Assembly: GCA_965224245.1 (NCBI GenBank)
Contig: OZ245046.1
Span: 6,387,235 to 6,451,234, forward strand
Length of the DNA: 64,000 bases
DNA from: Candidatus Eiseniibacteriota bacterium
GTDB lineage: Bacteria; Eisenbacteria; RBG-16-71-46; CAZAMP01
Direction of reading: 5' to 3'
Positions within the stretch are counted from its first letter, which is position 1, and each line of letters opens with the position of its first letter. Shown in pieces: positions 17,401 to 53,846 of the stretch. Both the position numbers and the translations under genes were made by a program. The notes beneath the pieces were generated by a model. The model was not told the DNA's origin. It was given only the letters and a program-made list of their open reading frames with translations, and searched no databases.

Positions 17401-17873
17401 CCGAACTCCTGATGACTCACGCGGACCGCCCCGCCGGCTTCCCAGATCCCGAGCGCGGCCGCCGCCGTACCAGCCCCATCGAGGCCGTAGCCGGAACCGC
17501 CGCCAGGCCACACCTCGTCGGTGCTGATCGTACGGGCCGCGTTGAGATTCGTGGTCTCGAACCAGACCGGCTGGCCGCGATCGTCGATGTACGCGAGCAT
17601 GACGCCGGGCTCGTCCAGCAGTCGTGAGCGTGGGTCCTCACGATCGAGGATTCGCTGATAGACCGCAGGTTGGTGGTCACTCAGCCACTGATTGAATGTC
17701 GTCGCCAGCTCGAGGAGACGCGCCTTTTGTGTCGAGGACGGCTCCCACGCCTGCGCGCTGCATGGCTGCGGTGACGTGAGCCAGGCGGTGAGGACACCCA
17801 GAGCCAGCCACCGAGCTGCGCGAGGCGTACGGGTACGGATTCGGGCATTGCGAGTCACAGCTACCGAAGGCAT
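14457..17873 (-). CDS. Secreted S8 (subtilisin-like) serine peptidase with HYR/Ig-like repeats and FlgD-Ig C-terminal domain
   Basis: Signal peptide and prodomain. GIWEAGG, DHATHVAGT, KSAGN, KPDIVANG, SGTSMSTP. Cys-containing HYR-like repeats (TVEDETPPVVECP). SPNPFNP...WTGRDDRG...SGFYIVRL tail. Confidence 0.93.
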   Translation of the reverse strand: MPSVAVTRNARIRTRTPRAARWLALGVLTAWLTSPQPCSAQAWEPSSTQKARLLELATTFNQWLSDHQPAVYQRILDREDPRSRLLDEPGVMLAYIDDRGQPVWFETTNLNAARTISTDEVWPGGGSGYGLDGAGTAAAALGIWEAGGAVRVSHQEFGGRITQIDGGTLSDHATHVAGTMLAAGMDAAAQGMSFAASMNAYDAAGDTGEMTAAAAAGLLISNHSYGRICGWRVDDGNWYGDTSIDQNEDWKFGFYNAQAQQWDQLAVAAPNYLIFKSAGNDRNDFAPPPGTAHMHGSDGATFTDTHDSDGDPLGYDTIPTYGTAKNIMTVGAVDDIPGGYTGAGDVVQSAFSGWGPADDGRIKPDIVANGVSLYSTGADSDTDYYTTSGTSMSTPNASGSANLLREQFQDLNGVLPRSATLKALIIHTADEAGPADGPDYMNGWGLMNTESAADVIAAGQFDDRGIVEDDLADTATDSWTLNVNSVGDARVTIVWTDPAGTPPADALDPTDVMLVNDLDLRITHVDSGTTYRPWVLNPASPANAATTGDNVLDNVEQVHIANAALGQYTISVTHKGSLVDAPQQYSLIYSGMSRNAAPVAMCQDVTVPADDACLAEVAPEDVDDGSFDPDGDPITLSLSPEGPYGLGETEVTLTVSDDKGASGTCTATITVEDETPPVVECPPDVVVECSVAGGVPIDDPQLTDFFDGFSASDNCDSDLTIVDNAPPLFEGPCSASGGVTVVTWTATDDAGNSSQCSATVTVVDTVAPTFDVLLPSRDVLWPPNHKMVDISMEIEVSDVCDDDVIVTLDSITSSEPDDGQGDGSTEDDIQDATYGTDDRAFALRAERSGLSDEGRTYTITYTVADCSGNSTTESVEVLVPHDQGAAVARGVSGLSEDGTTVDETAAFVSFVIPSIPFENPPAETVPGGARLIDRLAFDATRVLAARARLGNTAGVAAPVRTALVDIDGDHNEDLLIVFDATHVGALAQTTTEHGSVGLQFRMRDTGQDFLVTDVFQLGAPVGGALSQFIRSSDEPTEEIPQNVESAPANERLRISPNPFNPHTAIAFDLARPDDVRLCVYNPRGERVATLVDGSLAAGRYEISWTGRDDRGAQVVSGFYIVRLQVGSVVQTAKIALLK

Positions 17874-22786: not shown

Positions 22787-22800
22787 TGTCAATCTTGACA
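22787..22800. promoter_or_regulatory. TGTCAA-N2-TTGACA palindrome, operator-like
   Basis: Perfect inverted repeat in the intergenic region between divergent genes. Confidence 0.4.
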
Positions 22801-23183
22801 ACGATTTACGCGAGGTTTCCTCGTCCCGCGAGCTCCGCGACCCTGAGGCCCCGCAGGGTAGCCGTGTCCAGCACCGCCGCACCTCGACCTCGAGCTGCCA
22901 GCTCCGCCGGGCCGGACCAGTAACGCCATGGAGAGAGGTGCCCTGGAGCCGTTCTCCGGGCTCGGACGAGTCGCTCGACCCGACGCGCCAGAGGTTCGAC
23001 CGCTTCGTCGACATCGAGCCCGGTCGTCACGACGACCGACGTCGCTGCGGTCGAATCGAGCGCTCCTTCGAGTCCGTCCGGCTCGCTCCGAAGATCCCGT
23101 CACATTGCGACCACGCCTTCATCACGCCCTCCCGAAAGGCGTTATGTCCAGGTCCCCGAACGGGACTCGCGCATGCTCGTACA

Positions 23184-23198
23184 TGGCACGGCTCGTGC
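23184..23198 (+). promoter_or_regulatory. Candidate sigma54 (-24/-12) promoter
   Basis: TGGCACG-GCTC-GTGC has exact GG-N10-GC spacing and one mismatch to TGGCACG-N4-TTGC. About 135 nt upstream of the next CDS. Confidence 0.45.
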
Positions 23199-23333
23199 GT
23201 CTTTGCTGACTGTCATCGGCGCGCTCGCGCCGAGCCAGCCGCTTCGCCGGAGCGAAGCGATCCACGAGTCAACCCCGCCCGCGCCCCGCACGTGTCCGTC
23301 GTTTCCTCATCGAGAGGAAGGAAGGAGTCGGAG

Positions 23334-24425
23334 GTGAGCGCGTCAAACGTCACGAGTGAATGGAACGAGACGACCGGCAGTCGAAGCCCGCACGCGGCGA
23401 TGGAGCTCCGGACTCCGCGTCGCGGAACGGGAGCGCTGATTCGCTGTGCATTAGGACTCGCCATGCTGGGTGTCTTCTGCTCGTCAGGGGTGGCCCAGGT
23501 GTTCGAGAACAATGGCACGACATCCGAGTACGACAACGACGGCGGCTGGTTCGGCTGGTCGCAATACAACGTCACGGCATCCTGGACGGTCATCGTGGAC
23601 GCCCGTCCGTCCGAGACCCAGCACTATCTCGTCACGCTGTGGGAAGACGACGTCGACTGGGACGATGAGCTTGGACGGAAGATCGCGTGCATCGAGCCCG
23701 CGCAGTGGGTCGAGCGAGGGGATGGCCGCTTCCAGGTCACGATCCAGAAGACCTGGAATCGGATCAGCACGTACTACGGGGACGACTGGATCTCGACGAT
23801 CGAGAGCGTCAGCGAGCGACGCGCGCTGGCAGGCGTGTGCGAGGGGCCGTCATGCGGAGCGATCAGCACGACCTTCGAGCAGTGGACCGAGTTCGATCCG
23901 CTGGAGCAGGTCATTCGTCTGGAGGAGTCGGCGTGCACGATCGTGGAGTTCCGCTATGGCGAGCATCACAGTGACTTTCGAGAGGACCCCATCCTCCCGG
24001 GCGAATCGCGTCTCGTGCGCTACGATCCTCAGGGTGGGTTGCAGCCGTTCGAGATCACGTTCGAGGGTGGCCGAGTCGAGGCCGGGACGCTGATCGGAAT
24101 GGTCGATCCGGATGCTCTCGCTGCCGATGCACCGCCCGGTGGGGCCGTGATCCACGTGAGCATGACACCGCATCCGTTCGCCGCGGGCAACGCCCGGTTC
24201 CGGCTGTCGCTGCCGGAGGCAGCGGTGGTCAGTCTCAGAATCCATGGAGTCGATGGACGGCTCGTCCGCACGCTCCTTCGCGACGAGAGCCTCGATGCCG
24301 GCCTCCACCCGATCGGCTGGGACGGCCGCGACGATTCAGGACGCAGGGTCGCCAGTGGCGTTTATCAGTACGTTCTCGATACTCCGGCGGGTATCCGCTC
24401 GGACGGCCTCGTCGTGACCCACTGA
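23334..24425 (+). CDS. Secreted hypothetical protein with FlgD-Ig C-terminal domain
   Basis: GTG 23334 after AAGGAG (alternative ATG 23400). Hydrophobic signal LGLAMLGVFCSSGVAQ. TPHPF...IHGVDGRLVRTL...WDGRDDSG...SGVYQY tail. Confidence 0.8.
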   Translation: MSASNVTSEWNETTGSRSPHAAMELRTPRRGTGALIRCALGLAMLGVFCSSGVAQVFENNGTTSEYDNDGGWFGWSQYNVTASWTVIVDARPSETQHYLVTLWEDDVDWDDELGRKIACIEPAQWVERGDGRFQVTIQKTWNRISTYYGDDWISTIESVSERRALAGVCEGPSCGAISTTFEQWTEFDPLEQVIRLEESACTIVEFRYGEHHSDFREDPILPGESRLVRYDPQGGLQPFEITFEGGRVEAGTLIGMVDPDALAADAPPGGAVIHVSMTPHPFAAGNARFRLSLPEAAVVSLRIHGVDGRLVRTLLRDESLDAGLHPIGWDGRDDSGRRVASGVYQYVLDTPAGIRSDGLVVTH

Positions 24426-25753: not shown

Positions 25754-28435
25754 ATGTGCCCGGCTGCCCGGTTCCGCCGACTTGCGATTCTCGTGGCAAC
25801 TCTCCTCCCAGGCTCGGTCAGCGTCGTCGCAAGTGCCCCGCCGTCGCTCACGGAGACTCGGTTCCTGCCCGGCGATGACACGCCAGCGGCGGCCATCGGC
25901 ATGCAGAGCAACCCCCAGATCTGTGCGGGCGACGAATCCTATCTCGCGGTGTGGGTGGACAGCCGGGCGTCGATCACCCACATCGGCACCTTCTCGGGTG
26001 GACCCACGTACGACGAACACACCGGAAGCATGTGGGACATCTACGCGGTGCGGTTGAACGCAAACGGAGACCCGATCGACTCGACACCGATCATCGTCGC
26101 ACAGCAGGTGATGAACCAGGGTATTCCCGACGTGGCATGGAACGGCGAGAACTGGCTCGTGATCTGGACCGGACAGGTCGGTCTCCAGTGCTGCGCCAAC
26201 GAGGATCGGTATGCGGCTCGCGTGTCACCGGACGGCGTGGTGCTCGACGAGACGCCGATCGCGATCGCGAGATACCCGGAGGCGGAGGCATTGTGGCCGG
26301 CGGCGGTCGGGAGTGACGGAACGAACTGGCTCGTGGTCTGGATGACCCGTGGCACGTCGACGTCGTTCCGCGTGAATGCGACGCGGGTTGCGCCGGACGG
26401 CACCGTCCTCGACCCCGGCGGTGTCGAGATCGCGGCCGGCAGCTCTCCCGGAGACTTCGACGTAGCGTTCGCCGGGGGCGAGTACTTCGTCACGTGGTCG
26501 AGCGGGGGCATGACCAGCGGCGGCGACATCCTCGGACAGCGTTTGCAGCCAGACCTGACGCGAATTGGTGGCCCGATTCGCGTCAATCTCTACACGCCGT
26601 CGCTCGGCTGGAACGGTCGGGTGGCCACCGACGGCACGGACTACTTCGTCACGTGGTGGGAGCATCGGTACGACTACTACTCGGCGCTGGTCGGCGCGCG
26701 TGTTACCCATGACGGCACCGTTCTCGATCCGGACGGTCTCTTTCTCACCGAAGCTTACGGCACGCAGAACTACTTTCCCTCGGTCACCTTCGATGGTGTG
26801 AACTACGTCGTCGTCTACGACCGGAGCGACCGTGATCTCTACGCGACCCGCGTCACGCCGGCCGGCGTGATCCTCGACTACGACATCGATGCAATCCCGG
26901 TCTCCTCGGCCCCCGAGCCACAGTGGATGTCGGCTGTCGATCGCCTGCCCGGCATGGATCGCTCGCTGGCGATCTGGAGAGACGATCGCCACAGCCCGTC
27001 GGTGTTTGCGTCGATCGGTGACATCTTCGCCGCGACGATCGAAGCGGATGGCTCCGTGGGATCGGAGCACTGCGTCGCCCTCGGTGCGCCGCGTCAGACG
27101 CTGTTACGACTGATCCCGAATGACACCGGACATCTCGCCGTGTATCGGAGTGAGACCTCGAGTGAAACCCGGATCCTGGCCCAGCGCCTCGACGCCGGAG
27201 GAACCGCGATCGACGCCGAGCCGGTGGTCGTTGTCGCCGGCGGCGCCGGCATCTCCAGCCCGGCTGCCGCGTGGAACGGATCGGTGCACCTCGTGGTCTG
27301 GGAGGACGGCGCCATCAACCAGGCTTTCGGGCGTCGCTTCACCGCCGATCTCACCCCCCTCGACGTGCTGCCGATCAGCATCATGCCCGGCAACATGACC
27401 GACGTGGCCGCGCTCGACGATCTCTTCCTGGTCGTCACGTCGTGGGAGGAGCCGCACGAGGTGCGCGGCGGCTACGGCGTGCGCGTTCGTGGATCCGACG
27501 GGGCCGTCCTCGACGCGACCCCCAGGCTCTTCTCCAGCGGATACACAGTCCATCCGCGCGTGGCTACACTCGGTGATCGGTGGATCACCGTGTGGGAGAG
27601 CCACGCGACACACGACACCCCTAGCTCGACCGCCAAGGGCAACTTCGTCGATCAAACGGGCGCGCCGGGAGCTTGGTTCTACGTCGATCTCGACGCCAGG
27701 AAGCCGGTCGTAGCCGGTAGCGGTGATCAGGCTCTCCTCGTGGTGGATGGTCGCAACTGGCCCCTCAACCAGGATGTCTACGCCCGCCGCATCCTTTCCG
27801 ATGGAACGCTCCTCGACGACTACCGCGAGATCGTCGTGGCCGAGGTGGCCGAGGAACAGTTCGACACCGCGGTGGCGTGGGACGGAAGCGAGTTCGTCAC
27901 CACGTTCAGCGATTTCCGCGACGACACGTTTCGTAGCGATCTCTACGGAGCGCGTGTCGGCGGGGACGGAGCGGTTCTCGACCCCGGGGGCTTCGTGGTG
28001 GTGAACGACAGCATTCCCGAGATGTTCTCGGCGGTGACCGGCTCCGGCGGGGAGTTCGTGATCGGAGGATCGATCTTCCGGCCGGACGACGGATACGCGA
28101 ACTACCGGATTGCCGTACGAAGCTCGTCACCGGTCGTGGGAACTCCGGGCGTGGGGGACGACATCCGGCCGCCGTTGCTGACCTTGACTCGGAATCCCAC
28201 GCCGGGACCGATGTCGATCGTGCTCACCCCGAGCAACTCGGCTCCCGTGACGGTGAGCGTCTTCGATGCAGCCGGACGCCTCGTGTACACGCTGTTCGAG
28301 GGGCGTGCGCACGGGGTGCTGCGCCTCACCTGGGACGGGCGCGACGCGCGGGGACGAGAGGTTGCCCCGGGGACGTACTTCGTGCGGGCGGCGACGCCAG
28401 CCTCGGAGTCCGTGGTGCGGGCCGTTCGCCTGTGA
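25754..28435 (+). CDS. Secreted repeat (probable beta-propeller) protein with FlgD-Ig C-terminal domain
   Basis: Signal peptide, about 14 units of P.VA..G..YLVVW...DIYA.RV..DG.VLD, TRNPT...FDAAGRLV...WDGRD...PGTYFVR tail. Confidence 0.85.
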   Translation: MCPAARFRRLAILVATLLPGSVSVVASAPPSLTETRFLPGDDTPAAAIGMQSNPQICAGDESYLAVWVDSRASITHIGTFSGGPTYDEHTGSMWDIYAVRLNANGDPIDSTPIIVAQQVMNQGIPDVAWNGENWLVIWTGQVGLQCCANEDRYAARVSPDGVVLDETPIAIARYPEAEALWPAAVGSDGTNWLVVWMTRGTSTSFRVNATRVAPDGTVLDPGGVEIAAGSSPGDFDVAFAGGEYFVTWSSGGMTSGGDILGQRLQPDLTRIGGPIRVNLYTPSLGWNGRVATDGTDYFVTWWEHRYDYYSALVGARVTHDGTVLDPDGLFLTEAYGTQNYFPSVTFDGVNYVVVYDRSDRDLYATRVTPAGVILDYDIDAIPVSSAPEPQWMSAVDRLPGMDRSLAIWRDDRHSPSVFASIGDIFAATIEADGSVGSEHCVALGAPRQTLLRLIPNDTGHLAVYRSETSSETRILAQRLDAGGTAIDAEPVVVVAGGAGISSPAAAWNGSVHLVVWEDGAINQAFGRRFTADLTPLDVLPISIMPGNMTDVAALDDLFLVVTSWEEPHEVRGGYGVRVRGSDGAVLDATPRLFSSGYTVHPRVATLGDRWITVWESHATHDTPSSTAKGNFVDQTGAPGAWFYVDLDARKPVVAGSGDQALLVVDGRNWPLNQDVYARRILSDGTLLDDYREIVVAEVAEEQFDTAVAWDGSEFVTTFSDFRDDTFRSDLYGARVGGDGAVLDPGGFVVVNDSIPEMFSAVTGSGGEFVIGGSIFRPDDGYANYRIAVRSSSPVVGTPGVGDDIRPPLLTLTRNPTPGPMSIVLTPSNSAPVTVSVFDAAGRLVYTLFEGRAHGVLRLTWDGRDARGREVAPGTYFVRAATPASESVVRAVRL

Positions 28436-28687
28436 ACCGGGGATCCGGATCCGAGCCGCCTCGGGTCAGGGAAACGACGATCGCAGGCTTGGGCGGGCCC
28501 CAGCGTGGAATGGATGTCGGCGGTGACGGCAACCGAGCCGTCAAGAGCGTAACGTCAACTGAAGCAACGCCTAAGCGTTCTCGGGGATGGACGACGACTC
28601 AGGAATGCGAGCATCGGGTGTATCTTTCGCCCGTTACCCGAAACCACATGTCAGGACCATGGACGGTCGAGGGTTTTTTTCTGATAC

Positions 28688-28707
28688 TTTTCAGGATTTC
28701 CTGAAAA
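28688..28707. promoter_or_regulatory. TTTTCAGGA-TT-TCCTGAAAA palindrome, operator-like
   Basis: Perfect 9-bp inverted repeat in an AT-rich patch about 190 nt upstream of the 28901 gene pair. Confidence 0.5.
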
Positions 28708-28900
28708 TGGGCCCCTGACACCCATCCCGACCGGATGTCGGCCGGCGGAGCTGGCATCGGAGACCCGTTACGGACGTTCGATGGCCTCCTGTCCGATCGT
28801 CGCGGACCGAGACCATCTTCCAGATCCCTGCACGACGAGTGGGAGGCCCGCACGCCGCATCCAGCCCCCGAGCGGCGCGCATCCACACGAGGAGAGGACG

Positions 28901-30331
28901 ATGAGGCGAGAGAGATCCCTGCGACGAGGCGCCGTCTGGATGGTCGCGATGCTGGCGGCGCCCCCCTCGTTCGCCGCGGAGCCGTGCGCGGACTGGGAGC
29001 TGGTCGACACACCGAATCCCGGCACGACGTTCAACTTCATCAACGGCGTCGCGCGGCTGGGCGCCGGGGATGCTCTGGCCATGGGGCGAGACGGCCAGGG
29101 AGCGTTCGCGTTGAGGTGGAACCGGACGACATGGTCCGAGATCGCGATTCCCTCCACGGCCGAGGTCGGCGGTACGTACATCGTCGAGGGTTGTGGAAGC
29201 ACCCCCGCCGGCGACGTGTGGGCGGTCGGAGCTGTGTTCCTGAGCTCGTTCGATTCTGCCCCACTGGCCATGCGTCACGACGGCACGGACTGGGATCTCG
29301 TCGAGGTCGTCTCGCTAGATGGTGCACGCACCGGCGGCGCCGTGGCCGTTCATGCGCTCGCCGACGACGATGCGTGGGCGGTCGGTGCGAAAGGTGGGGA
29401 TGGTGGCGGTGTCGGCGGGAGTCCCGTTCTCGCCATGCACTGGGACGGTTCCTCGTGGACCGAGTTCCCGGCCCCGGCCGTCGGTGATCGCCAGAACCAC
29501 CTCGAGTCAGTCTCGATGGTCGCGACCGACGACGTGTGGGCGGTGGGGGATCACCAGAACATCGTCCAGTCGCCACTCGGCTTCCACGCCACGACGCTTC
29601 ACTGGGATGGCTCCACATGGAGCGAGATCGTGAACCCGGGTTACTCCATCGCGGAGGGGACCCACCTCATGAGCGTGGCGGCCGTCGCGACCGACGACGT
29701 GTGGGCCGCGGGCTACGGTCCCGACGGAGTGCTGTTCATGCACTGGGATGGTTCGGGCTGGTCGATCGTCCCCGCCCCCGCCACCTCGAGCAGCTTCGGT
29801 GGCGGCCTGACCGTGCTCGCACCCCACGACATCTGGGCTACGACCGGCCGGGAGTTTCTGCACTGGAACGGCGCGGACTGGCAGGTCGTGCTCCCGGCCG
29901 AAGTGCCCGGAGCCTCCGGCATTGCCCTTGGCCAGCTCGCACGGATCGGCGCGTGCGAGCTGTGGGCGGCCGGGAGCTACCAGCCCGAGGGTGCACCGTA
30001 CGCACGCACGCTCGCGCAGCACTTCCAGGCGGGCGTCGTCTCGGTGCCCGGGACCGTGACCGCACCGTCGATCATCTCCGGGCTGATCGCCCGCCCCAAC
30101 CCGCTCCGGGCGCGTGCCGTCATCGGCTTCGATCTGACCGAGAACGCAGTGGTCAGCATGAACGTGTTCGACGCGAGCGGGAGGCAGGTTCTGACGCGTG
30201 CGGGCCGACGCCATCCGGCCGGCACTCATGCGGTCGAGCTCGATGCCACCGGTCTGGCATCAGGAACCTACTTCGTGCGTGTCGAGGCCGGCGCGGAGTC
30301 CATGGCGATGCCGATATCGGTGCATCGCTGA
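28901..30331 (+). CDS. Secreted beta-propeller (DVWAVG/HWDG repeats) with C-terminal sorting domain
   Basis: GGAGAGG RBS, signal peptide, about 7 repeats of D(V/A)WAVG...HW(D/N)G..W, RPNPL...FDASGRQV...LASGTYFVRV tail. Confidence 0.88.
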   Translation: MRRERSLRRGAVWMVAMLAAPPSFAAEPCADWELVDTPNPGTTFNFINGVARLGAGDALAMGRDGQGAFALRWNRTTWSEIAIPSTAEVGGTYIVEGCGSTPAGDVWAVGAVFLSSFDSAPLAMRHDGTDWDLVEVVSLDGARTGGAVAVHALADDDAWAVGAKGGDGGGVGGSPVLAMHWDGSSWTEFPAPAVGDRQNHLESVSMVATDDVWAVGDHQNIVQSPLGFHATTLHWDGSTWSEIVNPGYSIAEGTHLMSVAAVATDDVWAAGYGPDGVLFMHWDGSGWSIVPAPATSSSFGGGLTVLAPHDIWATTGREFLHWNGADWQVVLPAEVPGASGIALGQLARIGACELWAAGSYQPEGAPYARTLAQHFQAGVVSVPGTVTAPSIISGLIARPNPLRARAVIGFDLTENAVVSMNVFDASGRQVLTRAGRRHPAGTHAVELDATGLASGTYFVRVEAGAESMAMPISVHR

Positions 30332-30369
30332 TCCATGATCGGCGGGTGAGCACGGTGAGGAGGTGAGGA

Positions 30370-33090
30370 ATGAGCAAGAGCATGATCATCGGGACGTTGC
30401 TGTGCCTGGGCATCACGGCAACCGAGCAGACGGCGCACGCGTCGGGTGACCGGGTCGGCGCGGATGCATCGTACTTCCTGGCCCCGTGGCGTGGCTGGGA
30501 TTGCGGCTACTTCGCGGACTTCTCCGGAATAGACGACGGAGGATTCGGTCCGGAGGCGCTCGCAGTCGGAGACCTGAACGGAGACGGGACACCGGACGTG
30601 GTGATCTCCCACTCGTACCATGGCTTCCCTGGCATCTCGGTTCTGCAGGGTCTTGGCGGGGGAGCGTTCGCCCAGCCTACCTACCTCGGCACCCCGGGGA
30701 ACTTGACGGTGTTCGAGGTCGAGCTGCACGACTTCGATGCCGATGGCGACCTCGACGTGTTCGCGGCGCTGCACGGTGGATCCGGCAATGGTCAGGCGGT
30801 CGGCCTGTGGCGCAACAACGGCGACGGCACTCTGGCCACCCGGCAGGATCTGACGGTCGGCACCGGTCCACGCGAAATCGCACTGGCCGACGTCACCGGA
30901 GACGGGATCGCGGACCTGATCAGCACCAACCACGGATCCATCTCCGGGAACACCGTCTCCATGCTCGAGCACAACGGCCTGACCGGACCGGCGGCCGGCT
31001 TCCTGCCCCGGGTCGACTCCCCGACCGTGACTGGAGCCAACGGGCTGGCGGTGGTGGACATGAACGGAGACGGCCTGCGGGATGTCGTCGTGGCCGGAGA
31101 CGGACGCCGGATGGGCGTGGGCATCAATGCCGGCGGCGGCGTGTTCGACGCCCCTGAGGTCGAGTACAACCTGAACTACCTGAGCAGCTACACCGCCAGC
31201 TGCCTGGCGGCCGGCGACTTCGATGCGGATGGTGACGTGGACGTGGCCACGTCGTCGAACGGCCATCTCCTGATCTGGCGCAACGACGGCTCGGGGGCTC
31301 TGTCCGGAGAGGGCGGCACAGAAGCACTCCCGTTCGCATCGCCCGTGCCGCTGGACGACGGCGTCACGTTCTCGGGTGTGAACGCCTACCGGATCCGCGC
31401 CGAGGACGTGAATCTCGACGGCTGGGTGGACCTCCTCACCGCGAACTCCAACGGGCGTTCGGGGGAGAGCTGGAACCTGGTGCTCGGCGACGGCGCGGGT
31501 GGATTCCTGGATCCGCTGGCGTTTCATTGCTCGCAGAACACGCAGGACATCGGTGCCGTGGACGTCGACGAGGATGGTGATCTCGACGTGCTGACGCTGG
31601 CCCACTTCTCGAGCGCGCTCACCGTACACCTGAACCGGGGCAGTCAGGGGTTCCGTGCGATCGCCGACCCGGCTCCGGTGCAGCCCCTGAGCCAGCAGAT
31701 CGCGGTCGCGGATCTCGACCTCGACGGAGACGTCGACGCGATCACGATCGCCGACGATGCGACCATCCTGCGCAATCCCGGCGACGGGCTGCTGGTCCCC
31801 GATGCACTTCGCTTCTTCACCCCGACGAACGGAAAAGACGTCCACCTGAAGGACGTCAACGGGGACATGTATCCGGACATGATCCTCGGTCCCGACGAGC
31901 AGTACCCGCCTTACGTGGTCGGCGTGGCCCACAACGACGGGGCCGGATCGTTTCTCCCGGGCTACATCCTGTGGCCCCTCGATCCGAGCTGTGGCACAGG
32001 CACGCTGGCGACCGGAGACTTCGACAACGACGGTGACGTCGACATCGCCTTGAGCGAGGAGCAGGGGTGTTTCGGATCGGTGGATCGACGGATCTTCCTG
32101 TTCGAGAATCTGGGCGGTGGAAGCTGGGTTTCATCCATCGCCACCGATCAGGTAGGCGGCCACTTCGGTCTCTCCACCGCCGACTTCAACGAGGACGGAA
32201 ACCTGGATCTGATCACGGCCCAGGTCGCGATCGACATCACCTACACCGTGTTTCCCGGAAACGGCGACATGACTTTCGGCCCCGCCCTCGTGAGCCCGGG
32301 GCCGATCGGCCCCACACGTACGTATCTCGGGCTGTTCGACGTCGGAGACCTCGATCTGGACGGCCACCTGGACGTGGTCTCGCTGTTCGAAGATCGCTCG
32401 TTCGGAACCGACGTCGTGGGTGTGTTGCTCGGCCAGGGCAACGGCTTCTTCGATCCGCTCCCGGTGAACGTCGCGCCGGGGTCCAGCGCGCTGGAAGCCC
32501 TGCGCATCGGACTGGACGTGGACCTGCCGGACATCGATCAGGATGGAGACCGGGACGTCGTGATCACCAACTACGCCTCCAACGACATCTCGGCTTTTCT
32601 CAACGATGGATCCGGTCACCTCCGCTCGCACGCGCGGTACGGGGCCAATCTGACCCCTGTCGAGACGATGGTGGCCGACATGGACGGTGATGCGCTCGAT
32701 GACCTCTGCGTACTCGTGAGCCGGCCGAATGTCGGCGGTGGGGTGATCGTGCTTCCCGGACTCGAGGTCGAGAACCCCGTGGATGTGGAACCCGCCTCAC
32801 CTGGTGATCCCGCGATGCCCATCGTGCATCGGGTCTACCCCAATCCGGTGGGAGCCGCGGGCTTCATCGGCTACGAGCTCCCCCGATCCGCGGTCGTCGA
32901 GGTGTCGGTGTACAGCTCGATGGGGCAGCGGGTCCGGGCTCTGTGGAACGGACGGCAGGATGCCGGGCATCACGTCGTGGAATGGGACGCGACGGCGGAT
33001 GACGGAGAGCCGGTGCCCAGTGGGGTCTACTACATCTCGTTCGAGGCCGATCGAGCTCGCGCGTCTCACAAGACAGTGGTAGTAAGGTGA
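30370..33090 (+). CDS. FG-GAP/VCBS-repeat secreted protein with FlgD-Ig C-terminal domain
   Basis: GAGGAGG RBS, signal peptide, more than a dozen (G/A)D(L/F)(N/D)GDG..D repeats, YPNPV...WDATADDG...PSGVYYI tail. Confidence 0.92.
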   Translation: MSKSMIIGTLLCLGITATEQTAHASGDRVGADASYFLAPWRGWDCGYFADFSGIDDGGFGPEALAVGDLNGDGTPDVVISHSYHGFPGISVLQGLGGGAFAQPTYLGTPGNLTVFEVELHDFDADGDLDVFAALHGGSGNGQAVGLWRNNGDGTLATRQDLTVGTGPREIALADVTGDGIADLISTNHGSISGNTVSMLEHNGLTGPAAGFLPRVDSPTVTGANGLAVVDMNGDGLRDVVVAGDGRRMGVGINAGGGVFDAPEVEYNLNYLSSYTASCLAAGDFDADGDVDVATSSNGHLLIWRNDGSGALSGEGGTEALPFASPVPLDDGVTFSGVNAYRIRAEDVNLDGWVDLLTANSNGRSGESWNLVLGDGAGGFLDPLAFHCSQNTQDIGAVDVDEDGDLDVLTLAHFSSALTVHLNRGSQGFRAIADPAPVQPLSQQIAVADLDLDGDVDAITIADDATILRNPGDGLLVPDALRFFTPTNGKDVHLKDVNGDMYPDMILGPDEQYPPYVVGVAHNDGAGSFLPGYILWPLDPSCGTGTLATGDFDNDGDVDIALSEEQGCFGSVDRRIFLFENLGGGSWVSSIATDQVGGHFGLSTADFNEDGNLDLITAQVAIDITYTVFPGNGDMTFGPALVSPGPIGPTRTYLGLFDVGDLDLDGHLDVVSLFEDRSFGTDVVGVLLGQGNGFFDPLPVNVAPGSSALEALRIGLDVDLPDIDQDGDRDVVITNYASNDISAFLNDGSGHLRSHARYGANLTPVETMVADMDGDALDDLCVLVSRPNVGGGVIVLPGLEVENPVDVEPASPGDPAMPIVHRVYPNPVGAAGFIGYELPRSAVVEVSVYSSMGQRVRALWNGRQDAGHHVVEWDATADDGEPVPSGVYYISFEADRARASHKTVVVR

Positions 33091-33206
33091 TGCTCGATTG
33101 CAGCTCACGTCGCGGCCGGAGCCGGAAGCGGGCCGGCCGCGGCAACCCATGACCCCGGTACCAGCCGGTGCCCATCCGGGGCGATCATACCATCGGACCT
33201 CGCACG

Positions 33207-34700
33207 ATGACCGTGGACGGAAAACCGCCCGACCCCATTCAGGACGTCCGGATTCTCGACTCGGTCAAGGAACTCCGTGTCATGGCCGACGTCACTCGAC
33301 TGGAGATCATGAGGCTCCTTAGCCGGACGGCGATGACCGGTACCATGATCGCTCGCGAGATCGGGATCCCTGCAAACCGCGCCCATTACCATCTGCAGCG
33401 GCTGCTCTCGGTGGGGCTCGTGCAACAGGTGCGAACGGGGCGCAAACGATGGCGCGACGAGCGGTACTTCGTCTCGGTAGCCCGCCATTTCGTGGTCGAT
33501 CCGCAGCTGGGGTGCCGGGACGCTGGAACGACCGCCACCCTGCGCCGGGCGATCGAGACGGCCTTCATGGACTGGCGTCGGGCCGAGGTCCTGTCTCTCG
33601 ACTGGACGCCCCTGGTTCGACGTCTGGTCCGGGAGTCGCTGCAGGTGCGGCCCGGGGAACACGTCCTGGTCGCGCACGGTCCGTTCGTCCTCGAGCTCGC
33701 CGAAGCGATACTGGTGGAGATCGATACCGTGGGCGCCATCGGTCACGCCAAGCCCTGGTCCCGAAACGTGCTCGTCAGGACGCTCGACAGTCACTCTCCC
33801 GCCGAGCTCGATCAGCTACGCTTCGTGCCCGAGTCCATCGACCGCGAGCTCGGAGCGGTCATCCTGGTGACCAGCAGTCTCGTACAAGGCACGCCGCCCA
33901 CCACCGCGCAGCGCGAGAAACTCCCGCACTTTCTGGAGATGCTCTCCCGGTGGGATCGATCGGTGAAGGAACGTGGGATCCGCAACATGGAGGTCGCGCT
34001 GCCTCATCGCGGCGAGTTCGCGGAGGGTGAGCTCACCGCGGAGGAAGCCATCGACACGTTCTGGCGATGTGTCGAAGGAGATCCGGGGCTGCATTGCGCA
34101 CGAGGACGTCAGCTTCAGGACCGGATGCAGGGCCGCCCGGAGATTCGGGTGTCCTGCCCCGAGGGAACGGATCTGCGGTTCCAGTCGGAGCCCGCGCTGA
34201 CCCGAGTGCATGACGGTGTGATCTCCACCGAAGATGTCCGGGACGGGCACACGAGCGACCGTCTTCCCTCCGGACTCCTCTCCGTCGTACCGCGCGAAGG
34301 GTCGGCCGAGGGTGTGCTGATCGCCGACTACACGCACAGCATGGGTCGTCATTTCCGCGACATCCGGGTCGAGCTCGAAGAAGGCCGCATCGTCTCGATC
34401 CGGTCCCGCGAAGACGAGGACACGCTTCGGCAGCTGATCGATCGCGAGAGCGGGGATCCCGAAGTGCTCGGTCACATCACGATCGGTCTCAATCCCGGCG
34501 GCCGCGCGTCCACGGGCAAGCCATCGCTGGATGCGTGCCACGAGGGTGTGGTCAACGCCAGCTTTGGAGACGATGAACGCGCGGGCGGCATCGGTCGGTC
34601 CACGCTGAAACTCAATCTCCCGTCCAGGAAGATGTCTCTCCGAGCGGGATCCGAGACGCTGGTCGACGGTGGAGCTCTCGTGCTCGACGGTGCCGGCTAG
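33207..34700 (+). CDS. ArsR-type winged-HTH regulator fused to a degenerate M29 (aminopeptidase T-like) domain
   Basis: N-terminus MADVTRLEIMRLL...IAREIG...HYHLQRLLSVGLV...ERYF. C-terminal part LQVRPGEHVLV, GTDLRF, LPSG, AEGVL, EEGRIV, IGLNP, LVDGG follows the M29 layout. Confidence 0.82.
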   Translation: MTVDGKPPDPIQDVRILDSVKELRVMADVTRLEIMRLLSRTAMTGTMIAREIGIPANRAHYHLQRLLSVGLVQQVRTGRKRWRDERYFVSVARHFVVDPQLGCRDAGTTATLRRAIETAFMDWRRAEVLSLDWTPLVRRLVRESLQVRPGEHVLVAHGPFVLELAEAILVEIDTVGAIGHAKPWSRNVLVRTLDSHSPAELDQLRFVPESIDRELGAVILVTSSLVQGTPPTTAQREKLPHFLEMLSRWDRSVKERGIRNMEVALPHRGEFAEGELTAEEAIDTFWRCVEGDPGLHCARGRQLQDRMQGRPEIRVSCPEGTDLRFQSEPALTRVHDGVISTEDVRDGHTSDRLPSGLLSVVPREGSAEGVLIADYTHSMGRHFRDIRVELEEGRIVSIRSREDEDTLRQLIDRESGDPEVLGHITIGLNPGGRASTGKPSLDACHEGVVNASFGDDERAGGIGRSTLKLNLPSRKMSLRAGSETLVDGGALVLDGAG

Positions 34701-34954
34701 ACCCTGCGTCGATGCGCCGTGAGGCGGGGACTCGCTCGAAGCTGATAGACGCCGACCATCGATCCTCGGGCCACAACGGAGCTCCTGGCCATGATGACGG
34801 GTCTGCGTTGCAGCCAGATGGTAGTATCGGCTTGTCTGCCCGGAGGACGACGTCCCGATGGAGGGCGTCGGCCCGCTCGGATCGATGGGCGGGCTCGTGT
34901 GCGATTTCGACGTACGCGGGGTTATCCTGGCAGTCCGGCGCCCAGGAGGACTCC

Positions 34955-35488
34955 GTGAACCATCCACTGCTCGCCGTCGTCGTGCTCGTAGCCTCCGCAC
35001 CCGCTGACGCCGGTGCGCTCGAGCTGGTCGCCGACGCCATCGCACCGGTGGCGGGCGGAGGCGCGATCGGCGATCGCTCGGAGATCGGCGCCGCCGGGCT
35101 CCCGCTCATGGGCCCGGGACAGGGTGGCTCGCTCGTCCTTCTATCCGGCCATCTCGCAGCCTACCCGCCACCGAGCGCGCTGGACATCACCACCGATCCG
35201 ATGTCGTCCGTGCCCGTGCTCACCGAGCTGCGCGTGTGCAACGCGAACCCGGTGCGTGCAAGCGCTCATCTCGAAGTGCGAATCGCCGGTGACACGGACG
35301 CGTCCGTGTCGCTCGAGGTGTTCGACGTGCGCGGGCGCCGCGTGGCGGTGCTCGTCGACGGCACCTTGCCGCCCGGATCGCATGATGTTCGGTGGGACGC
35401 CTCCTCGACCGTATCGGCCGGCGTCTACTTCCTCAGACTGCTGGCAGGTGACCTCGTGGATCGGAGACGACTGGTCGTCGCCGAATGA
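34955..35488 (+). CDS. Small secreted Gly-rich protein with C-terminal sorting domain, similar in architecture to 122..682
   Basis: AGGAGG then GTG 34955, signal peptide, GGSLVLLSGH segment, NANPV...FDVRGRRVAVL...AGVYFLRL tail. Confidence 0.8.
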   Translation: MNHPLLAVVVLVASAPADAGALELVADAIAPVAGGGAIGDRSEIGAAGLPLMGPGQGGSLVLLSGHLAAYPPPSALDITTDPMSSVPVLTELRVCNANPVRASAHLEVRIAGDTDASVSLEVFDVRGRRVAVLVDGTLPPGSHDVRWDASSTVSAGVYFLRLLAGDLVDRRRLVVAE

Positions 35489-35522
35489 GGCCGGCGGTCT
35501 TCCTCGAACCGGAGTGATCGAC

Positions 35523-36815
35523 ATGCTACGTGATGCCGTACGCGTTCGAAGGACGCTCGCGTCGCTGATCCTGGGCGTGCTCGTCAGTCTATCGGGCCAC
35601 GCCGCTGGTCCCGACCGCATCAACTACCAGGGATCCCTGAGCGACAGCGGGACGCCCGTGGACGGGATCGTCGACATCTCCGTCGCCCTCTACGCCGCCG
35701 GCATCGGCGGCGAGGCGCTCTGGTTGGAGGCGCACGCCGACGTCGTGGTCACCGCGGGTGTCTTCCACCTGGTGCTCGGCTCGCTCAGTCCCCTGGACGC
35801 CTCGCTCTTCGACGGAGTGGAGCGCTGGCTCGAGCTGACGGTCGATGGAGAGACCATCACGCCCCGGCGACAGTTCCTGAACGCACCCTACGCCATGCGC
35901 GCGTCGGTGGCCGACGTCGCGCTGTCCGGTGGGGACGGCCCGTGGGAGGTCTCCGGCGACGACATGACGTCGGGACTCGCCGGCAACGTCGGGATCGGCG
36001 TGGAGACCCCGCTCGAGAAGCTTCACGTGCGAGGCAGCGCCGCACTCGACCTGGGCAGCCTCTACCTGCGCGACTCCGCCGATCGCACCACCATCGAGCT
36101 CGATGCCGAGGAGGGGAGCGCCCTCGGCGACATCACGTTCTACGACACCGACGGCTCCGCGAAGATCCAGATCGATGCCTATCACGGCACCGGCGGCGAT
36201 GCGCGCATCACGATGGACGGCGCCCTTCACCTCGCGAGCGACGATCTCTATCAGCAGCCGACCACCGGCCGGATCAACATCGAGGACCAGCTGATGTTCT
36301 TCCGCGACGGCGACGGCGACGGCGACTACGACTTCGACCTCTTCGGCGCTGGGAACCTCTATCTGGGCGCGGAGTCGTCGATCCACCTCATGATCAACGA
36401 GTACGCGGCCGAGCGCGGGCGCCTTCGGATCACCACCGACGGCAACGCCAACTACATCCAGTCCGGGACGAGCTACTCGGGAACCACGTCGAAGGACCTG
36501 CGCGTCGGACCCATGAACACGTCCCAGGCGTACCTCACCGTGCAGGCGGAGACGGGCAATGTCGGGATCGGCACGCGAACGCCGACGAGCAAGCTACACG
36601 TCATCGGGAAAGCGACGTTCACCGGCGGCGTCGATCCGCCGTACATCTCGTTCAGCGCGGAGAGCCACCGGACGATCCGCGAATACGCAAAGGACCTCGA
36701 CCCGCACGAGGTCGTGATGCTGTTCTGGAACGACGACGCGAAGCGAATGCAGGTGTATGCGCGCGACGATGACGCGTTCTACACGCTGGACGGGGAGCGG
36801 GTACCGGAGAGATAA
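35523..36815 (+). CDS. Secreted fibre/adhesin-like protein (INYQG head domain, GNVGIG repeats)
   Basis: ATG 35523 after GGAG, signal peptide, INYQG...LW.E...G.F...LG...WLEL.V.GE..PR...PYA domain, two GNVGIG..P..KLHV repeats. Confidence 0.8.
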   Translation: MLRDAVRVRRTLASLILGVLVSLSGHAAGPDRINYQGSLSDSGTPVDGIVDISVALYAAGIGGEALWLEAHADVVVTAGVFHLVLGSLSPLDASLFDGVERWLELTVDGETITPRRQFLNAPYAMRASVADVALSGGDGPWEVSGDDMTSGLAGNVGIGVETPLEKLHVRGSAALDLGSLYLRDSADRTTIELDAEEGSALGDITFYDTDGSAKIQIDAYHGTGGDARITMDGALHLASDDLYQQPTTGRINIEDQLMFFRDGDGDGDYDFDLFGAGNLYLGAESSIHLMINEYAAERGRLRITTDGNANYIQSGTSYSGTTSKDLRVGPMNTSQAYLTVQAETGNVGIGTRTPTSKLHVIGKATFTGGVDPPYISFSAESHRTIREYAKDLDPHEVVMLFWNDDAKRMQVYARDDDAFYTLDGERVPER

Positions 36816-36850: not shown

Positions 36851-37753
36851 ATGGAACATCGGTTCGTACCGGAGCACTACCATCGAACGCTCGGCCCGCA
36901 TGAGCCTGTTCTGCGAGTCTCTGACGGAGACACCATCGTCACGACGACCGTCGATGCCGGTGGCCGCGATCATCTTCGCGAGCAGGTGACCCCGGGGGGG
37001 AACCCACAGACAGGGCCTTTCCACGTAGAGGGCGCCGAACGAGGTGACACGCTGGTCGTGCGCCTCGAGAGGATCACCCCGAATCGCGTCTACGGGTTCT
37101 CCGGGTCCTCGGTCGCGGAGAACGTCGTCGATCCCGACTACGTCCCCGACCTGCCGGACGCGCCGGGTGCCGAATGGGAGGTCGATGTCGAGGCCGGCAC
37201 GGCGACGCTGGTGGGGCCGGAGTCGTCCCTGGGAACCCTCACGCTGCCGCTCGAGCCGATGCTGGGCTGCTTCGGTGTGGCGCCCTGGGGCGGTCAGGCC
37301 ATCTCGACGGCGACATCGGCGGAGCACGGCGGCAACATGGACTATCGCGGCTTCACTCAGGGAACCACTGCGTACTTCCCGGTCTTCCAGCCGGGGGCGT
37401 TGCTCTTCATCGGTGACGGGCATGCGCTCCAGGGCGATGGTGAGATCGTCGGTGCGGGCGTCGAGATCTCCATGGACGTTCGCGTGACCGTGTCGGTACT
37501 CGAGAAGCACAGGATCCGCTGGCCGCGCGGCGAGAACGACGACTGGATCTTCACCGTCGGAAACGCCCGGCCGCTCGATCAGGCAACGCAGCATGCGACG
37601 ACGGAGATGCTGCGATGGCTGCAGCAGGACTACGGCCTCGATGCACTCGGGGCAAACCTGTTGCTCTCGCAGTGTGTCCGCTACGACCTCGGGAACGTGT
37701 TCGACCCGGCCTACACCATGGTGTGCAAGTTGCCGAAGACCGTCCTGCCCTAG
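36851..37753 (+). CDS. Acetamidase/formamidase family protein
   Basis: GGAGGAG RBS. NPQTGPFHVEGA..GDTL, HGGNMD, GDGHALQGDGE and GVE motifs. Confidence 0.93.
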   Translation: MEHRFVPEHYHRTLGPHEPVLRVSDGDTIVTTTVDAGGRDHLREQVTPGGNPQTGPFHVEGAERGDTLVVRLERITPNRVYGFSGSSVAENVVDPDYVPDLPDAPGAEWEVDVEAGTATLVGPESSLGTLTLPLEPMLGCFGVAPWGGQAISTATSAEHGGNMDYRGFTQGTTAYFPVFQPGALLFIGDGHALQGDGEIVGAGVEISMDVRVTVSVLEKHRIRWPRGENDDWIFTVGNARPLDQATQHATTEMLRWLQQDYGLDALGANLLLSQCVRYDLGNVFDPAYTMVCKLPKTVLP

Positions 37754-37876: not shown

Positions 37877-39118
37877 CTACTGCGCCAGCACCACTCTCTG
37901 GGACGTCACACGCCCCGCGCTCGCGAGCTCGTAGAAGTACACCCCGCTCGGCAGCCGGCGGCCGCCGTCGTCCGTGCCGCTCCAGCGAAGGTGATGCACT
38001 CCGTCCTCGAACGTTCCGGAGGCGAGAGAACGCACGCGGCGCCCCCGGGCGTCGAACACGTTCAAGGTGACTTCATCGCCGCCGGACACCTGGAACGAGA
38101 CGTCCGTGAACGGGCTGAAGGGGTTGGGTCGACTGGCGATGAGCTGCAACATCGGCGGCGTCTCGCTCCCGGCGTGCTCGCCGGCGCTCACGACCGACCC
38201 CGTGCCGGCCAGCTCTGCCAGCGCCGCGATGCTGACCTGTATGGCCTGGGTCATGCACGGCAGGTTCAGCGTCTCGATCGTGTCCGTGCTGCGATGGTAG
38301 AAGGGGGTGGACTCCCCTCCGATCCCGCCGTTGTGAGCTTCCCAGCAATCCATGGCGGTGACCGCCGGGATGCCGAGTGCAGTGAACGACACGTGGTCGT
38401 CACGACAGACGCCGCTCAGCTTCTTGGAGATCGGAATGCCCACGTAGCGGTCACAGGCCGAGATGACGGCATCGGCCAGCCACTCGGATACGGGCTCGTA
38501 TGCGACATCCAGGTCTCGTCCCCAGCCGGTGGGCCAGTAACCGATCATGTCGGCGTTCAGGACGGCCACGATGTCTTTGTCCGCGGCCAGGTAGTCCTGC
38601 GCGACGGCGATGCTGCCCCTTCGGCCCTGCTCCTCGGCGTTGTAGCAGATGAACTCCACCGTGCGCTGCAGGGGGTAGTCCCTCGAGATGAACGCGGCTT
38701 CCATTACGGCGGCGATCGCGCTTGCGTCGTCGTCGGCGCCCGGTGCGAGCGTGGTGGGCTGCTCGGACGTGGAATCGAAGTGACCGGAGATGATCACGAT
38801 CTCGTCCGGGTACGTCGTTCCCGGAATGCGCGCGATGATGTTCTCCTCGGTGTGCCCGCTGAAGCTGAACGCATGGCGCTCGACCATCACACCGATGTCG
38901 GTGAAGTAGTCGACGAGCCAGTCCCCTGCGTCGGTGTTTCCCTGGGTATACGTGTGTCGGGTATCGAAGTCCTGAAGCGCCTGAACCCAGCCCGTCACGC
39001 GCGCCTCGGACACCGCGGTCACCATCTCCTCGACGAGCGGATCTGTCTCGGCGTCGGCCGCGACCATCGGAACGGCGACCAATCCGGACAGGATCAGCGA
39101 GCCCCACGATGTGTTCAT
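37877..39118 (-). CDS. Secreted M28-family zinc (amino)peptidase with FlgD-Ig C-terminal domain
   Basis: Signal peptide. Ligand motifs SGHFDS, GADDDASA, NAEEQG..GS, LNADMIG, DH.SF, YH..TD. RPNPF...LPSGVYFY tail. Confidence 0.93.
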   Translation of the reverse strand: MNTSWGSLILSGLVAVPMVAADAETDPLVEEMVTAVSEARVTGWVQALQDFDTRHTYTQGNTDAGDWLVDYFTDIGVMVERHAFSFSGHTEENIIARIPGTTYPDEIVIISGHFDSTSEQPTTLAPGADDDASAIAAVMEAAFISRDYPLQRTVEFICYNAEEQGRRGSIAVAQDYLAADKDIVAVLNADMIGYWPTGWGRDLDVAYEPVSEWLADAVISACDRYVGIPISKKLSGVCRDDHVSFTALGIPAVTAMDCWEAHNGGIGGESTPFYHRSTDTIETLNLPCMTQAIQVSIAALAELAGTGSVVSAGEHAGSETPPMLQLIASRPNPFSPFTDVSFQVSGGDEVTLNVFDARGRRVRSLASGTFEDGVHHLRWSGTDDGGRRLPSGVYFYELASAGRVTSQRVVLAQ

Positions 39119-39525
39119 GCCAGTCCCCCTCGTTCAGCGACCCGGGCATTCCTCTACTCACCCCACATGATGCTAGCGGGTTCGTGAGCAATCGCCATCG
39201 TGGAGATCACGTACCGTACGGGCGGCGAAACGAGCGACGTGAAGGGCGACGGATCTTGAGGGAACGCCTCCTGGCAGAGGCATGCATGAGTACCTCGGGA
39301 AGCTCAGCAGCGACGATTGACGAATGTAGTGATTGCCGGATAATCGGGGGAATCACCTACACCGCTGATGTCCCGACCCAAGTAGCATCGAGTTTCCTCG
39401 ATATGGCACCTTGCTGCCCCCGGCTTCTCGCGATCGCCGGAGGTGCTGGGACACGTACGCCGGTGCGGACTGGCGCCCGTCACGCGACGTTCGCGGCGTG
39501 CAGGGGCTTTCGGAGAGGAGGCGCA

Positions 39526-40122
39526 ATGAAGAGGATGCAAACAGCGACCGGCGTGAAGGCAGTCGCGGGGATTCTGGCGTTCGGAATCTGGATGGTTCGG
39601 CCAGGTGAGGTGGTCGCGCACTGTGATTCGCTGGATGGTCCCGTGGTCCTGGAGGCCAAGGCAGCTCTCGTCTCGGGCGACGTCACGCCCATCCTGAAAT
39701 GGGTGAAGGAGGAGCACGAAGCTGAGGTCCGCATCGCCTTTGAGAAGTGCGTCGCCGTGAGGTCTATGGGCGCGGAGCCGGCCGAACTGGCCGACATGTA
39801 CTTGTTCGAAACTCTGGTGAGACTGCATCGAGAAGGTGAAGGTGCGCCTTACACCGGCCTGAAGCACGCGGGCGGGATAGAGCCGATCGTGGCTGCCGCC
39901 GACGAGGCCATCGATGCCGGCGGCGTGGATGATCTCGCTGAGAGAATCGGGCAGGCGGCCGAGCACGGTGTTCGAGAGCGCTTCGAGAGTCTGATGGAGG
40001 CACGCGAGCACGAGGACGAATCGGTTGAGGCGGGGCGCGCGTACGTGGAGGCGTACGTGGAGTTCGTGCACTTCGTGGAAGCCCTCCACGATGCGGTTGC
40101 TCGCGGATTGGAGCACCACTGA
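39526..40122 (+). CDS. Exported helical protein of the HCDxxDGPV family (DUF6448-like)
   Basis: GAGGAGG RBS, signal peptide ending VVA-HCDSLDGPVV, FETLVRLHREGEGAPYTGLK, GRAYVEAYV.F.H. Confidence 0.85.
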   Translation: MKRMQTATGVKAVAGILAFGIWMVRPGEVVAHCDSLDGPVVLEAKAALVSGDVTPILKWVKEEHEAEVRIAFEKCVAVRSMGAEPAELADMYLFETLVRLHREGEGAPYTGLKHAGGIEPIVAAADEAIDAGGVDDLAERIGQAAEHGVRERFESLMEAREHEDESVEAGRAYVEAYVEFVHFVEALHDAVARGLEHH

Positions 40123-53771: not shown

Positions 53772-53846
53772 TACGGGCTCGGTAGGGTCGGAAGCCGGGT
53801 GCCGGCCCTACCGAGAACCGGCACAGGGTCAACCGGGACGACGTTC

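Follow-up and report, generated by a model that had tools for sequence, protein, structure and literature searches.

A putative one-component regulator combining an ArsR-type winged helix with a pseudo-peptidase M29 domain in Candidatus Eiseniibacteriota

What is the function of a protein that begins as a DNA-binding domain and continues as an aminopeptidase fold whose metal ligands have been replaced? The question is raised by a gene at positions 33207-34700 of a 64,000-nucleotide (nt) stretch of a Candidatus Eiseniibacteriota genome (assembly GCA_965224245.1, contig OZ245046.1, positions 6,387,235 to 6,451,234), which is referred to here in its whole length as the window and whose numbering is used throughout. 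A first-pass annotation, made from the sequence alone, had described the product as an N-terminal winged helix joined to a full-length AmpT/AmpS-like domain, and had proposed that it acts as a transcription factor. That role is supported by comparative evidence from palindromes associated with this gene family. The reading that we regard as probable is that of a homodimeric ArsR/HTH_20-type regulator with a pseudo-M29 domain, which would control a cluster of three genes (28781-34700) through a palindrome at 28688-28707 and would be released by a ligand. The gene and the parts of its product are as follows:

33207-34700, + strand: regulator gene, encoding a winged helix-turn-helix (wHTH) and a pseudo-M29 domain, 497 amino acids (aa), stop codon included (open reading frame, ORF, and translation)
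33282-33425, + strand: ArsR/HTH_20 wHTH, residues 26-73 (Pfam and VIA-align)
33483-33590, + strand: strand and long helix linking both domains, residues ~93-128, at the centre of the predicted dimer interface (DSSP of the model and homodimer prediction)
33576-34694, + strand: complete M29-aminopeptidase fold without metal ligands, residues ~124-496 (structure comparison and ligand columns)

Architecture, metal site and distribution of the fused protein

The reading frame runs from an ATG at 33207 to the stop at 34700, and this start is favoured over an alternative GTG at 33168 because homologue alignments begin at residues ~5-15. The profile searches called for by the first-pass annotation placed HTH_20 (36.6 bits, cut-off 27), HTH_5 (23.1 bits, cut-off 22) and Peptidase_M29 above their Pfam cut-offs. 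Within the wHTH, the recognition helix corresponds approximately to residues 56-68 (IPANRAHYHLQRL). Structural alignment with VIA-align matched model residues 12-129 to PH1932 (2cwe) with a Z score of 12.0, and the winged helix to CzrA, SmtB and CadC with Z scores of 10-11. The NCBIfam metalloregulator model NF033788 (ArsR/SmtB) gave 35.5 bits, under its cut-off of 55, and the translation contains no cysteine in residues 1-102. The classic metal sites of ArsR/SmtB regulators are thiolate sites, and thus cannot be present in this protein. The wHTH is followed by a linker helix, assigned by DSSP to residues 106-128 of the AlphaFold2 model.

The model, built on a 119-sequence alignment, has a mean pLDDT of 95.5 and a pTM of 0.91. 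Its residues 124-496 found their top structural match in NicX (7cn3; Z 27.3, 310 residues aligned), followed by AmpT (2ayi; Z 26.3, 355 aligned), and residues ~123-496 were matched to PepS (4ics; Z 25.8) and AmpS (1zjc; Z 25.4). Foldseek returned E values of 1e-17 to 1e-19 for the model against PepS, NicX, AmpS and AmpT, and profile alignments to M29 aminopeptidases reached 5e-23 to 6e-24. The Pfam match to Peptidase_M29 (PF02073; 30.0 bits, cut-off 27) is limited to residues 347-416, equivalent to positions 238-308 of the 406 in the profile, so that the full-length M29 domain is a structural claim and not one based on Pfam; NCBIfam holds no model for the C-terminal domain of the fused family. 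At the level of the predicted structure, the architecture first proposed, a wHTH followed by a complete M29 fold, is confirmed by the Pfam HTH matches and the structural alignments (Z 25-27).

The metal site of AmpS, as given in PMC4661694, comprises Glu253, Glu319, His348, Tyr355, His381 and Asp383 (the 1zjc chain numbering used in the profile alignments is the literature numbering plus 3). The placement of the Tyr355 column in the alignment is uncertain; ligand counts refer to the other five. Profile alignments to 1zjc and 7cn3, together with column tables, gave the replacements E253→L357, E319→H423, H348→N450, H381→K468 and D383→N470, so that the regulator retains not one of these five M29 ligands; in addition, the glutamate of the M29 'DE' motif is replaced by A443. 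The five motif equivalences originally proposed, and with them the replacement of essentially every ligand, were thus reproduced. The 119 rows of the alignment correspond to 38 fused sequences and 81 unfused relatives. All five ligands (E, E, H, H, D) are kept by 25 rows, all of them unfused proteins of ~365 aa, and their occurrence in exactly those columns indicates that the ligand positions are correctly aligned. Among the 38 fused sequences none keeps all five and 24 keep none, the best (P0027) retaining four. These comparisons support the view of the C-terminal domain as a pseudo-peptidase whose dinuclear metal site has been lost. Among the unfused M29-like relatives (~360-420 aa), 25 of 81 keep all five ligands, and many standalone 'aminopeptidase' annotations in the superfamily may accordingly belong to non-peptidases too.

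A survey of the architecture indicated that the fusion is recurrent. An exhaustive search of cluster representatives returned 1389 matches with E<=1e-3, of which 34 reached E<=1e-30; proteins of 470-540 aa aligned over residues ~10-491 are frequent among them. In 37 full-length fused sequences, Pfam detected HTH_20 in 34 and Peptidase_M29 in 31, and in distant members the M29 match spans nearly the whole profile (positions 5-388 of 406 in P0027). The 370-residue domain is intact across several phyla at ~25% identity. Within the phylum, full-length copies were found in 13 of 201 sampled genomes, 23 copies in total, at most four in any one genome and concentrated in four families. In the source genome (6.94 Mb) the fused architecture occurs three times, at 100%, 43% and 27% identity, alongside a single unfused relative. 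Among named relatives, those nearest to the regulator (47-48% identity) come from Candidatus Eisenbacteria metagenome-assembled genomes. An ESM Atlas cluster of 388 members carries PF02073 in 90% and PF12840 in 55% of them. A contig scan with P0192, a fused protein of the Zhaonella type, gave 24 loci, mostly from Ktedonobacteria, without yielding the neighbourhood of any distant fused member; of these, L059 and L057 were inspected and contain relatives with one domain each, an unfused M29-like ORF of 367 aa and an HTH ORF of 274 aa. Taken as a whole, the sequence evidence supports the fusion of a wHTH with an M29-like domain as a real architecture that is not limited to one assembly.

Palindromes and the genes beside them

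The candidate operator in the window lies at the head of a co-directional cluster, in which the regulator gene occupies the third position and the genes are separated by gaps of 38 and 116 nt:

28688-28707, no strand assigned: predicted operator, perfect palindrome TTTTCAGG-ATTT-CCTGAAAA, within the gap of 345 nt ahead of gene 28781
28781-30331, + strand: first cluster gene, 516 aa, Por_Secre_tail/FlgD_ig at the C-terminus, the N-terminal part belonging to no known family (Pfam)
30370-33090, + strand: second cluster gene, a 906-aa FG-GAP/VCBS repeat protein with a FlgD_ig tail (Pfam FG-GAP_3 3.6e-60, FlgD_ig 4.7e-11)

The palindrome is located 75 nt before the ATG at 28781. Its pattern, TTTCAG-N4-8-CTGAAA, has one match in the window, against none in 100 shuffles, and this match (28689-28706) is the single one in the whole 6.94-Mb genome, the reversed-pattern control giving 0. 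When one mismatch was allowed in TTTCAG-N6-CTGAAA, four more genomic sites appeared versus two for the reversed control, providing no evidence of further targets.

A comparison was extended to 19 loci, namely the 16 best orthologous loci, two loci of own-genome paralogues and the window. The palindromes searched for in these had 7-nt arms with no more than one mismatch, 2-8 nt between the arms and an A+T content of 60% or higher. There were 32 such sites in ~340 kb, 11 of which fall within ~170 nt upstream of the aligned N-terminus of the regulator, in 11 of the 19 loci. Conspicuous AT-rich palindromes stand in the 300 nt upstream of regulators in genomes of 61-71% G+C. Several arm types were found: TTTCAG/YTGAAA in L039, L040, L041, L045 and L051 (with a weaker copy recognised by eye in L049), ATATGCA/TGCATAT in L038, L047 and L048, TGTTCA/TGAACA in L043, and ATACAC/GTGTAT in L050. 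Further palindromes lie just before neighbouring tail-bearing genes, at 6404 and 12444 in L047 and at 14037 in L051. At the genome scale, TTTCAR-N6-YTGAAA occurs once in each of four genomes of 3.2-5.4 Mb (G102, G053, G155 and G182), always ~50 nt upstream of the regulator. G099 has three matches, one ahead of a regulator copy, another ahead of a Reg_prop+FlgD_ig gene and the third ahead of a Rax2/DUF5122 propeller gene; reversed-pattern controls were 0 throughout. The third of the G099 sites (L078 6003-6020, contig G099:C2) stands between divergent genes, far from the regulator copies, and one of these genes encodes the Rax2/DUF5122 beta-propeller. This distribution hints that some regulator paralogues have more than one target.

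The arm types appear to go with particular recognition sequences. The window protein and six orthologues with TTTCAG-type sites share the wHTH signatures T/S-G-S/T and IPANRAHYHL, and the group with ATATGCA-type sites carries PN(Q/R)ASYHL. The pairing of HTH signature with arm type is suggestive, the loci being related by descent. In the source genome, the locus of the 43% paralogue (L005, G000:C1 ~3465647) contains a TATGCAA-N6-TTGCATA palindrome, a variant of the ATATGCA type, at 10647-10668, just upstream of the paralogue and unique in the genome; next comes an FG-GAP+FlgD_ig gene, a homologue of 30370-33090. As judged from sequence, L005 holds a further set of regulator, operator and target besides that of the window. 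From these comparisons, each orthologue group is predicted to have its own AT-rich 7-8-7 palindromic operator.

The genes beside the regulators are also related among loci. The first cluster gene has homologues beside the regulator orthologues in L047 and L048 (478 aa aligned at 29% identity, E 5e-41), where a regulator-type palindrome stands 27 nt upstream of the homologue. The second, FG-GAP gene is a full-length homologue of the gene adjoining the own-genome paralogue (L005 6438-9140, E 1e-84) and also of a gene that precedes the L052 regulator on its upstream side. A Pfam FlgD_ig or Por_Secre_tail match is carried by the closest called neighbour, on one side of the regulator or on both, in 14 of the 19 loci; in two of these, L045 and L050, that neighbour lies 1.5-1.8 kb off. 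The tailed neighbours usually also contain Reg_prop, FG-GAP, LVIVD or Sortilin/BNR repeats. Neighbours in L038, L039 and L041 are of the Reg_prop type or linked by BLAST, with no tail match at the threshold used, and those in L046 and L049 are unrelated. The stop codon of the regulator overlaps the start of the next gene in L039, L040 and L051.

The recurrent neighbours are secreted beta-propeller-type proteins with FlgD_ig/Por_Secre tails and not peptidases, and the analysis gave no support for the connection with the window's peptidases and amidase suggested by the first-pass annotation. The enzymes themselves are present as described: S8 (14457-17873, - strand), M28 (37877-39118, - strand) and S41 (53799-56159, + strand) secreted peptidases, and an FmdA_AmdA-family amidase (36851-37753). 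The fused protein is also, as had been stated, the sole evident regulator of the window, no other HTH protein being found among the 35 other ORFs scanned by Pfam (thresholds E 1e-3 and 1e-4; 9 of the 35 without any match). The proteins of the window with FlgD_ig/Por_Secre-type tails comprise two of the peptidases, S8 and M28, as well as FG-GAP, LVIVD and DUF11 proteins.

In the cluster itself, a crude scan found no + strand terminator-like site between 28781 and the regulator, the only terminator-like site being on the minus strand. A scan of 28300-35200 for sigma-70-type promoters gave 0 sites, the sigma-70 model being uninformative for this phylum. Directly downstream of the regulator, a 258-aa ORF (34712-35488) terminates in a sequence that weakly resembles a FlgD_ig tail (E 0.0018). 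Part of this ORF is shared with a long-ORF call (35013-36815), the true start of which probably lies further in, near a signal-peptide-like stretch, and the boundaries of both are uncertain. Downstream of the regulator lie the amidase gene and a gene for a DUF6448 protein (39109-40122, E 8e-58), neither with any sign of regulon membership.

Two palindromes had been singled out in the window at the outset. The one at 28688 gained comparative evidence and is retained as the predicted operator. The other, TGTCAAtcTTGACA at 22787-22800, lies ~140 nt upstream of a FlgD_ig-tailed gene (22938-24425); it is of a different type, has no comparative support and was rejected as a site of the regulator. 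It could be the site of another factor, or simply contain a -35-like TTGACA.

Proposed mechanism and alternative readings

The regulator is predicted to be a homodimer. A two-copy prediction gave an ipSAE of 0.66 (runs of 0.63, 0.66 and 0.79) with 0.00 for the best of three controls, a score that may partly reflect likeness to solved structures, because ArsR and M29 dimers are among these. The runs agree in at least 55% of the contacts, and the pLDDT of the partner is at least 78. In the calibration, the mark was reached by 20 of 30 solved homodimers and by 1 of 23 single chains. The predicted interface is symmetric and comprises helix 1 (residues 14-39), residues 93-127 and the M29-like N-lobe (152-214), with the lowest-error contacts formed by residues 112, 115, 116 and 119 against the same residues of the partner copy.

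In the mechanism considered probable, the dimer would bind the palindrome at 28688-28707 and the bound dimer would control, and most likely repress, the cluster 28781-34700, including its own gene. Repression is the most likely mode because ArsR-type proteins usually repress and because the sites lie 20-170 nt upstream of start codons. A ligand occupying the former active-site cleft, possibly a peptide or an amino-acid derivative, would then free the regulator from DNA. For peptide sensing there is a single precedent, the metal-free peptide-binding protein CgnE, by analogy with which the pseudo-peptidase domain might recognise peptides.

Several observations weigh against this mechanism. The predicted site is 4.5 kb from the regulator gene, so that the link between them depends on the putative co-transcription of the three genes, and an inverted-repeat search found none in the 116 nt directly upstream of the regulator gene and none at 30300-30400. 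Seven of the 19 loci, including L049, have no palindrome by the scan criterion, and the 19-locus counts overstate independence because the loci are kin; the genes in these loci were, moreover, called by an in-house GC3 heuristic. The pairing of HTH signatures with arm types has exceptions, since L046 carries IPANRAHYHL with no site found and L005 carries PANRAHYHV with a different operator. Tail-bearing genes are abundant, with at least 150 scored FlgD_ig matches of 451 candidates in the 6.94 Mb of the source genome; therefore, some adjacency is expected by chance and adjacency is only moderately informative. Finally, Gly and Pro make up most of the invariant or near-invariant residues of the C-terminal domain in 37 fused sequences, with W286 and N429 in addition.

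The last point bears on an alternative that we consider unlikely, in which the pseudo-peptidase domain would be only a scaffold for dimerisation or oligomerisation, with no small-molecule or peptide ligand, and control would be exerted through the level of the protein itself or through partner proteins. It is favoured by the presence of the M29-like N-lobe in the predicted interface, by the dimerisation of M29 peptidases through their N-lobe (as stated in PMC10070186) and by the predominance of Gly and Pro among the conserved C-domain residues of the wider family. This pattern of conservation would fit a changing ligand and no ligand equally well. In the close clade of the regulator, however, many polar and aromatic residues are invariant, including E166, W184, W249, R256, D336 and D442. 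Moreover, ArsR proteins form dimers without such a domain, so that keeping 370 residues intact over several phyla, at ~25% identity, would be a high price for dimerisation alone.

It appears very improbable that the domain is still an enzyme, with NicX-like or metal-independent chemistry, making the protein both enzyme and regulator. NicX, its top structural match (Z 27.3), binds iron through His265, Ser302, His318 and Asp320 according to PMC7910607, and the regulator has H423 and S452 at the first two positions. Nevertheless, the set is incomplete, with two of four ligands kept, as His318 and Asp320 correspond to K468 and N470; of the 38 fused sequences, that of the window protein alone has H423. 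Thus, the fused family has no conserved metal-binding set. Hardly credible is the idea that the AT-rich palindromes are sites of another factor, or elements of promoters, and that their position does not reflect binding by the fused family: intergenic DNA of GC-rich genomes is relatively AT-rich and seven loci lack a site, but the motif is genome-unique in five genomes, each time beside the regulator or, in the window, at the head of the cluster, different arms go with different HTH sequences, and the paralogue has its own unique palindrome.

Beyond the regulator of the window, a broader proposal can be put forward tentatively, with doubts that outweigh our confidence in it. The fused proteins would constitute unrecognised one-component regulators in which a degenerate M29 receptor for peptide N-termini or amino-acid-like products gates an ArsR-type wHTH acting on genes for secreted, sorting-tail beta-propeller proteins. 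Paralogues arising by expansion of the family would form separate pairs of regulator and operator, as many as four in one genome, and each pair would have one genomic target or very few. Since the predicted operator sequences are genome-unique and paired with specific regulators, the hypothesis is testable in vitro with purified protein and a 22-bp duplex, and the paralogues may serve as orthogonal regulator-operator pairs. The hosts are little-studied candidate phyla without genetics, with hundreds of secreted FlgD_ig/Por_Secre-tailed proteins per genome.

Annotation and comparison with known systems

The names given to members of the family point in another direction. Among the named members encountered, these are "aminopeptidase", "leucyl aminopeptidase (aminopeptidase T)" or the generic "helix-turn-helix domain-containing protein". 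The second is the JGI label of many Eisenbacteria relatives, and "aminopeptidase" is the name of distant fused members in Zhaonella formicivorans (Bacillota), Candidatus Cloacimonadota, Aegiribacteria and Sabulitectum. These proteins are read here as putative transcription factors without a peptidase metal site.

With HTH_20-type ArsR/SmtB regulators (PH1932, 1uly/2cwe; Phr, 2p4w), the regulator shares the order of winged helix, strand and long helix, a profile match to PH1932 1uly over residues 3-94 (E 4.6e-20), and, as predictions, a dimer and a palindromic operator. It differs from them in its score under the NCBIfam metalloregulator cut-off, in its cysteine-free residues 1-102 and in its M29-fold partner domain. 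With M29 aminopeptidases (AmpS 1zjc, AmpT 2ayi, PepS 4icq/4ics), it shares the whole two-lobed fold (Z 25-26, 347-359 residues aligned) and an N-lobe that takes part in the dimer, here a predicted one, whereas the five ligands are replaced, a winged helix is added at the N-terminus and the C-terminal third is closer in sequence alignment to NicX. NicX, a 2,5-dihydroxypyridine 5,6-dioxygenase (7cn3/7cup), resembles it in fold, in the motifs GxxP and GPN..GG and in the residues at His265 and Ser302, and differs in that the regulator has Lys and Asn at His318 and Asp320. NicX is described in PMC7910607 as a hexamer with no DNA-binding domain.

One-component regulators built on enzyme folds include MocR/GabR (a wHTH with an aminotransferase fold), the ROK repressors and PepA, a DNA-binding aminopeptidase. 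The fused protein resembles these in the union of a DNA-binding domain with an enzyme-derived domain, which senses a metabolite in them and would do so here, and differs from them in its fold; GabR (4tv7) is among the weak Foldseek matches of the model (E 1.2e-3). A DNA-binding domain joined to an enzyme-derived domain is thus a known kind of regulator, and the M29-derived version is apparently undescribed in the literature searched: a full-text search, with subscription journals mostly outside its coverage, found no regulator with an M29-derived domain and no M29/ArsR fusion. The M29 fold would thereby be added to those enzyme folds that one-component regulators have taken up as sensor or scaffold domains.

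In the literature searched, a single other non-catalytic use of the M29 fold was found, that of CgnB and CgnE, two peptide-binding proteins of crocagin biosynthesis. According to PMC10070186, both are derived from M29, lack aminopeptidase activity and bind the precursor peptide, CgnE being metal-free. Their structures (6zsv and 6zsu) share the M29-derived fold with the regulator, with VIA-align Z scores of 13.3-14.1, much weaker than those of the peptidases. In contrast to the regulator, which keeps its N-lobe, they are described there as monomers without most of the N-terminal dimer-forming part and without HTH, acting as partners in the biosynthesis of peptides made on ribosomes and modified after translation (RiPPs). 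An arrangement in the source genome recalls RiPP clusters in which M29-like proteins such as CgnB and CgnE bind peptides: in L007 (8378-10948), an unfused 317-aa M29-like protein (Pfam 27.6 bits) is encoded head-to-head with a 556-aa radical SAM protein and adjoins a TPR protein.

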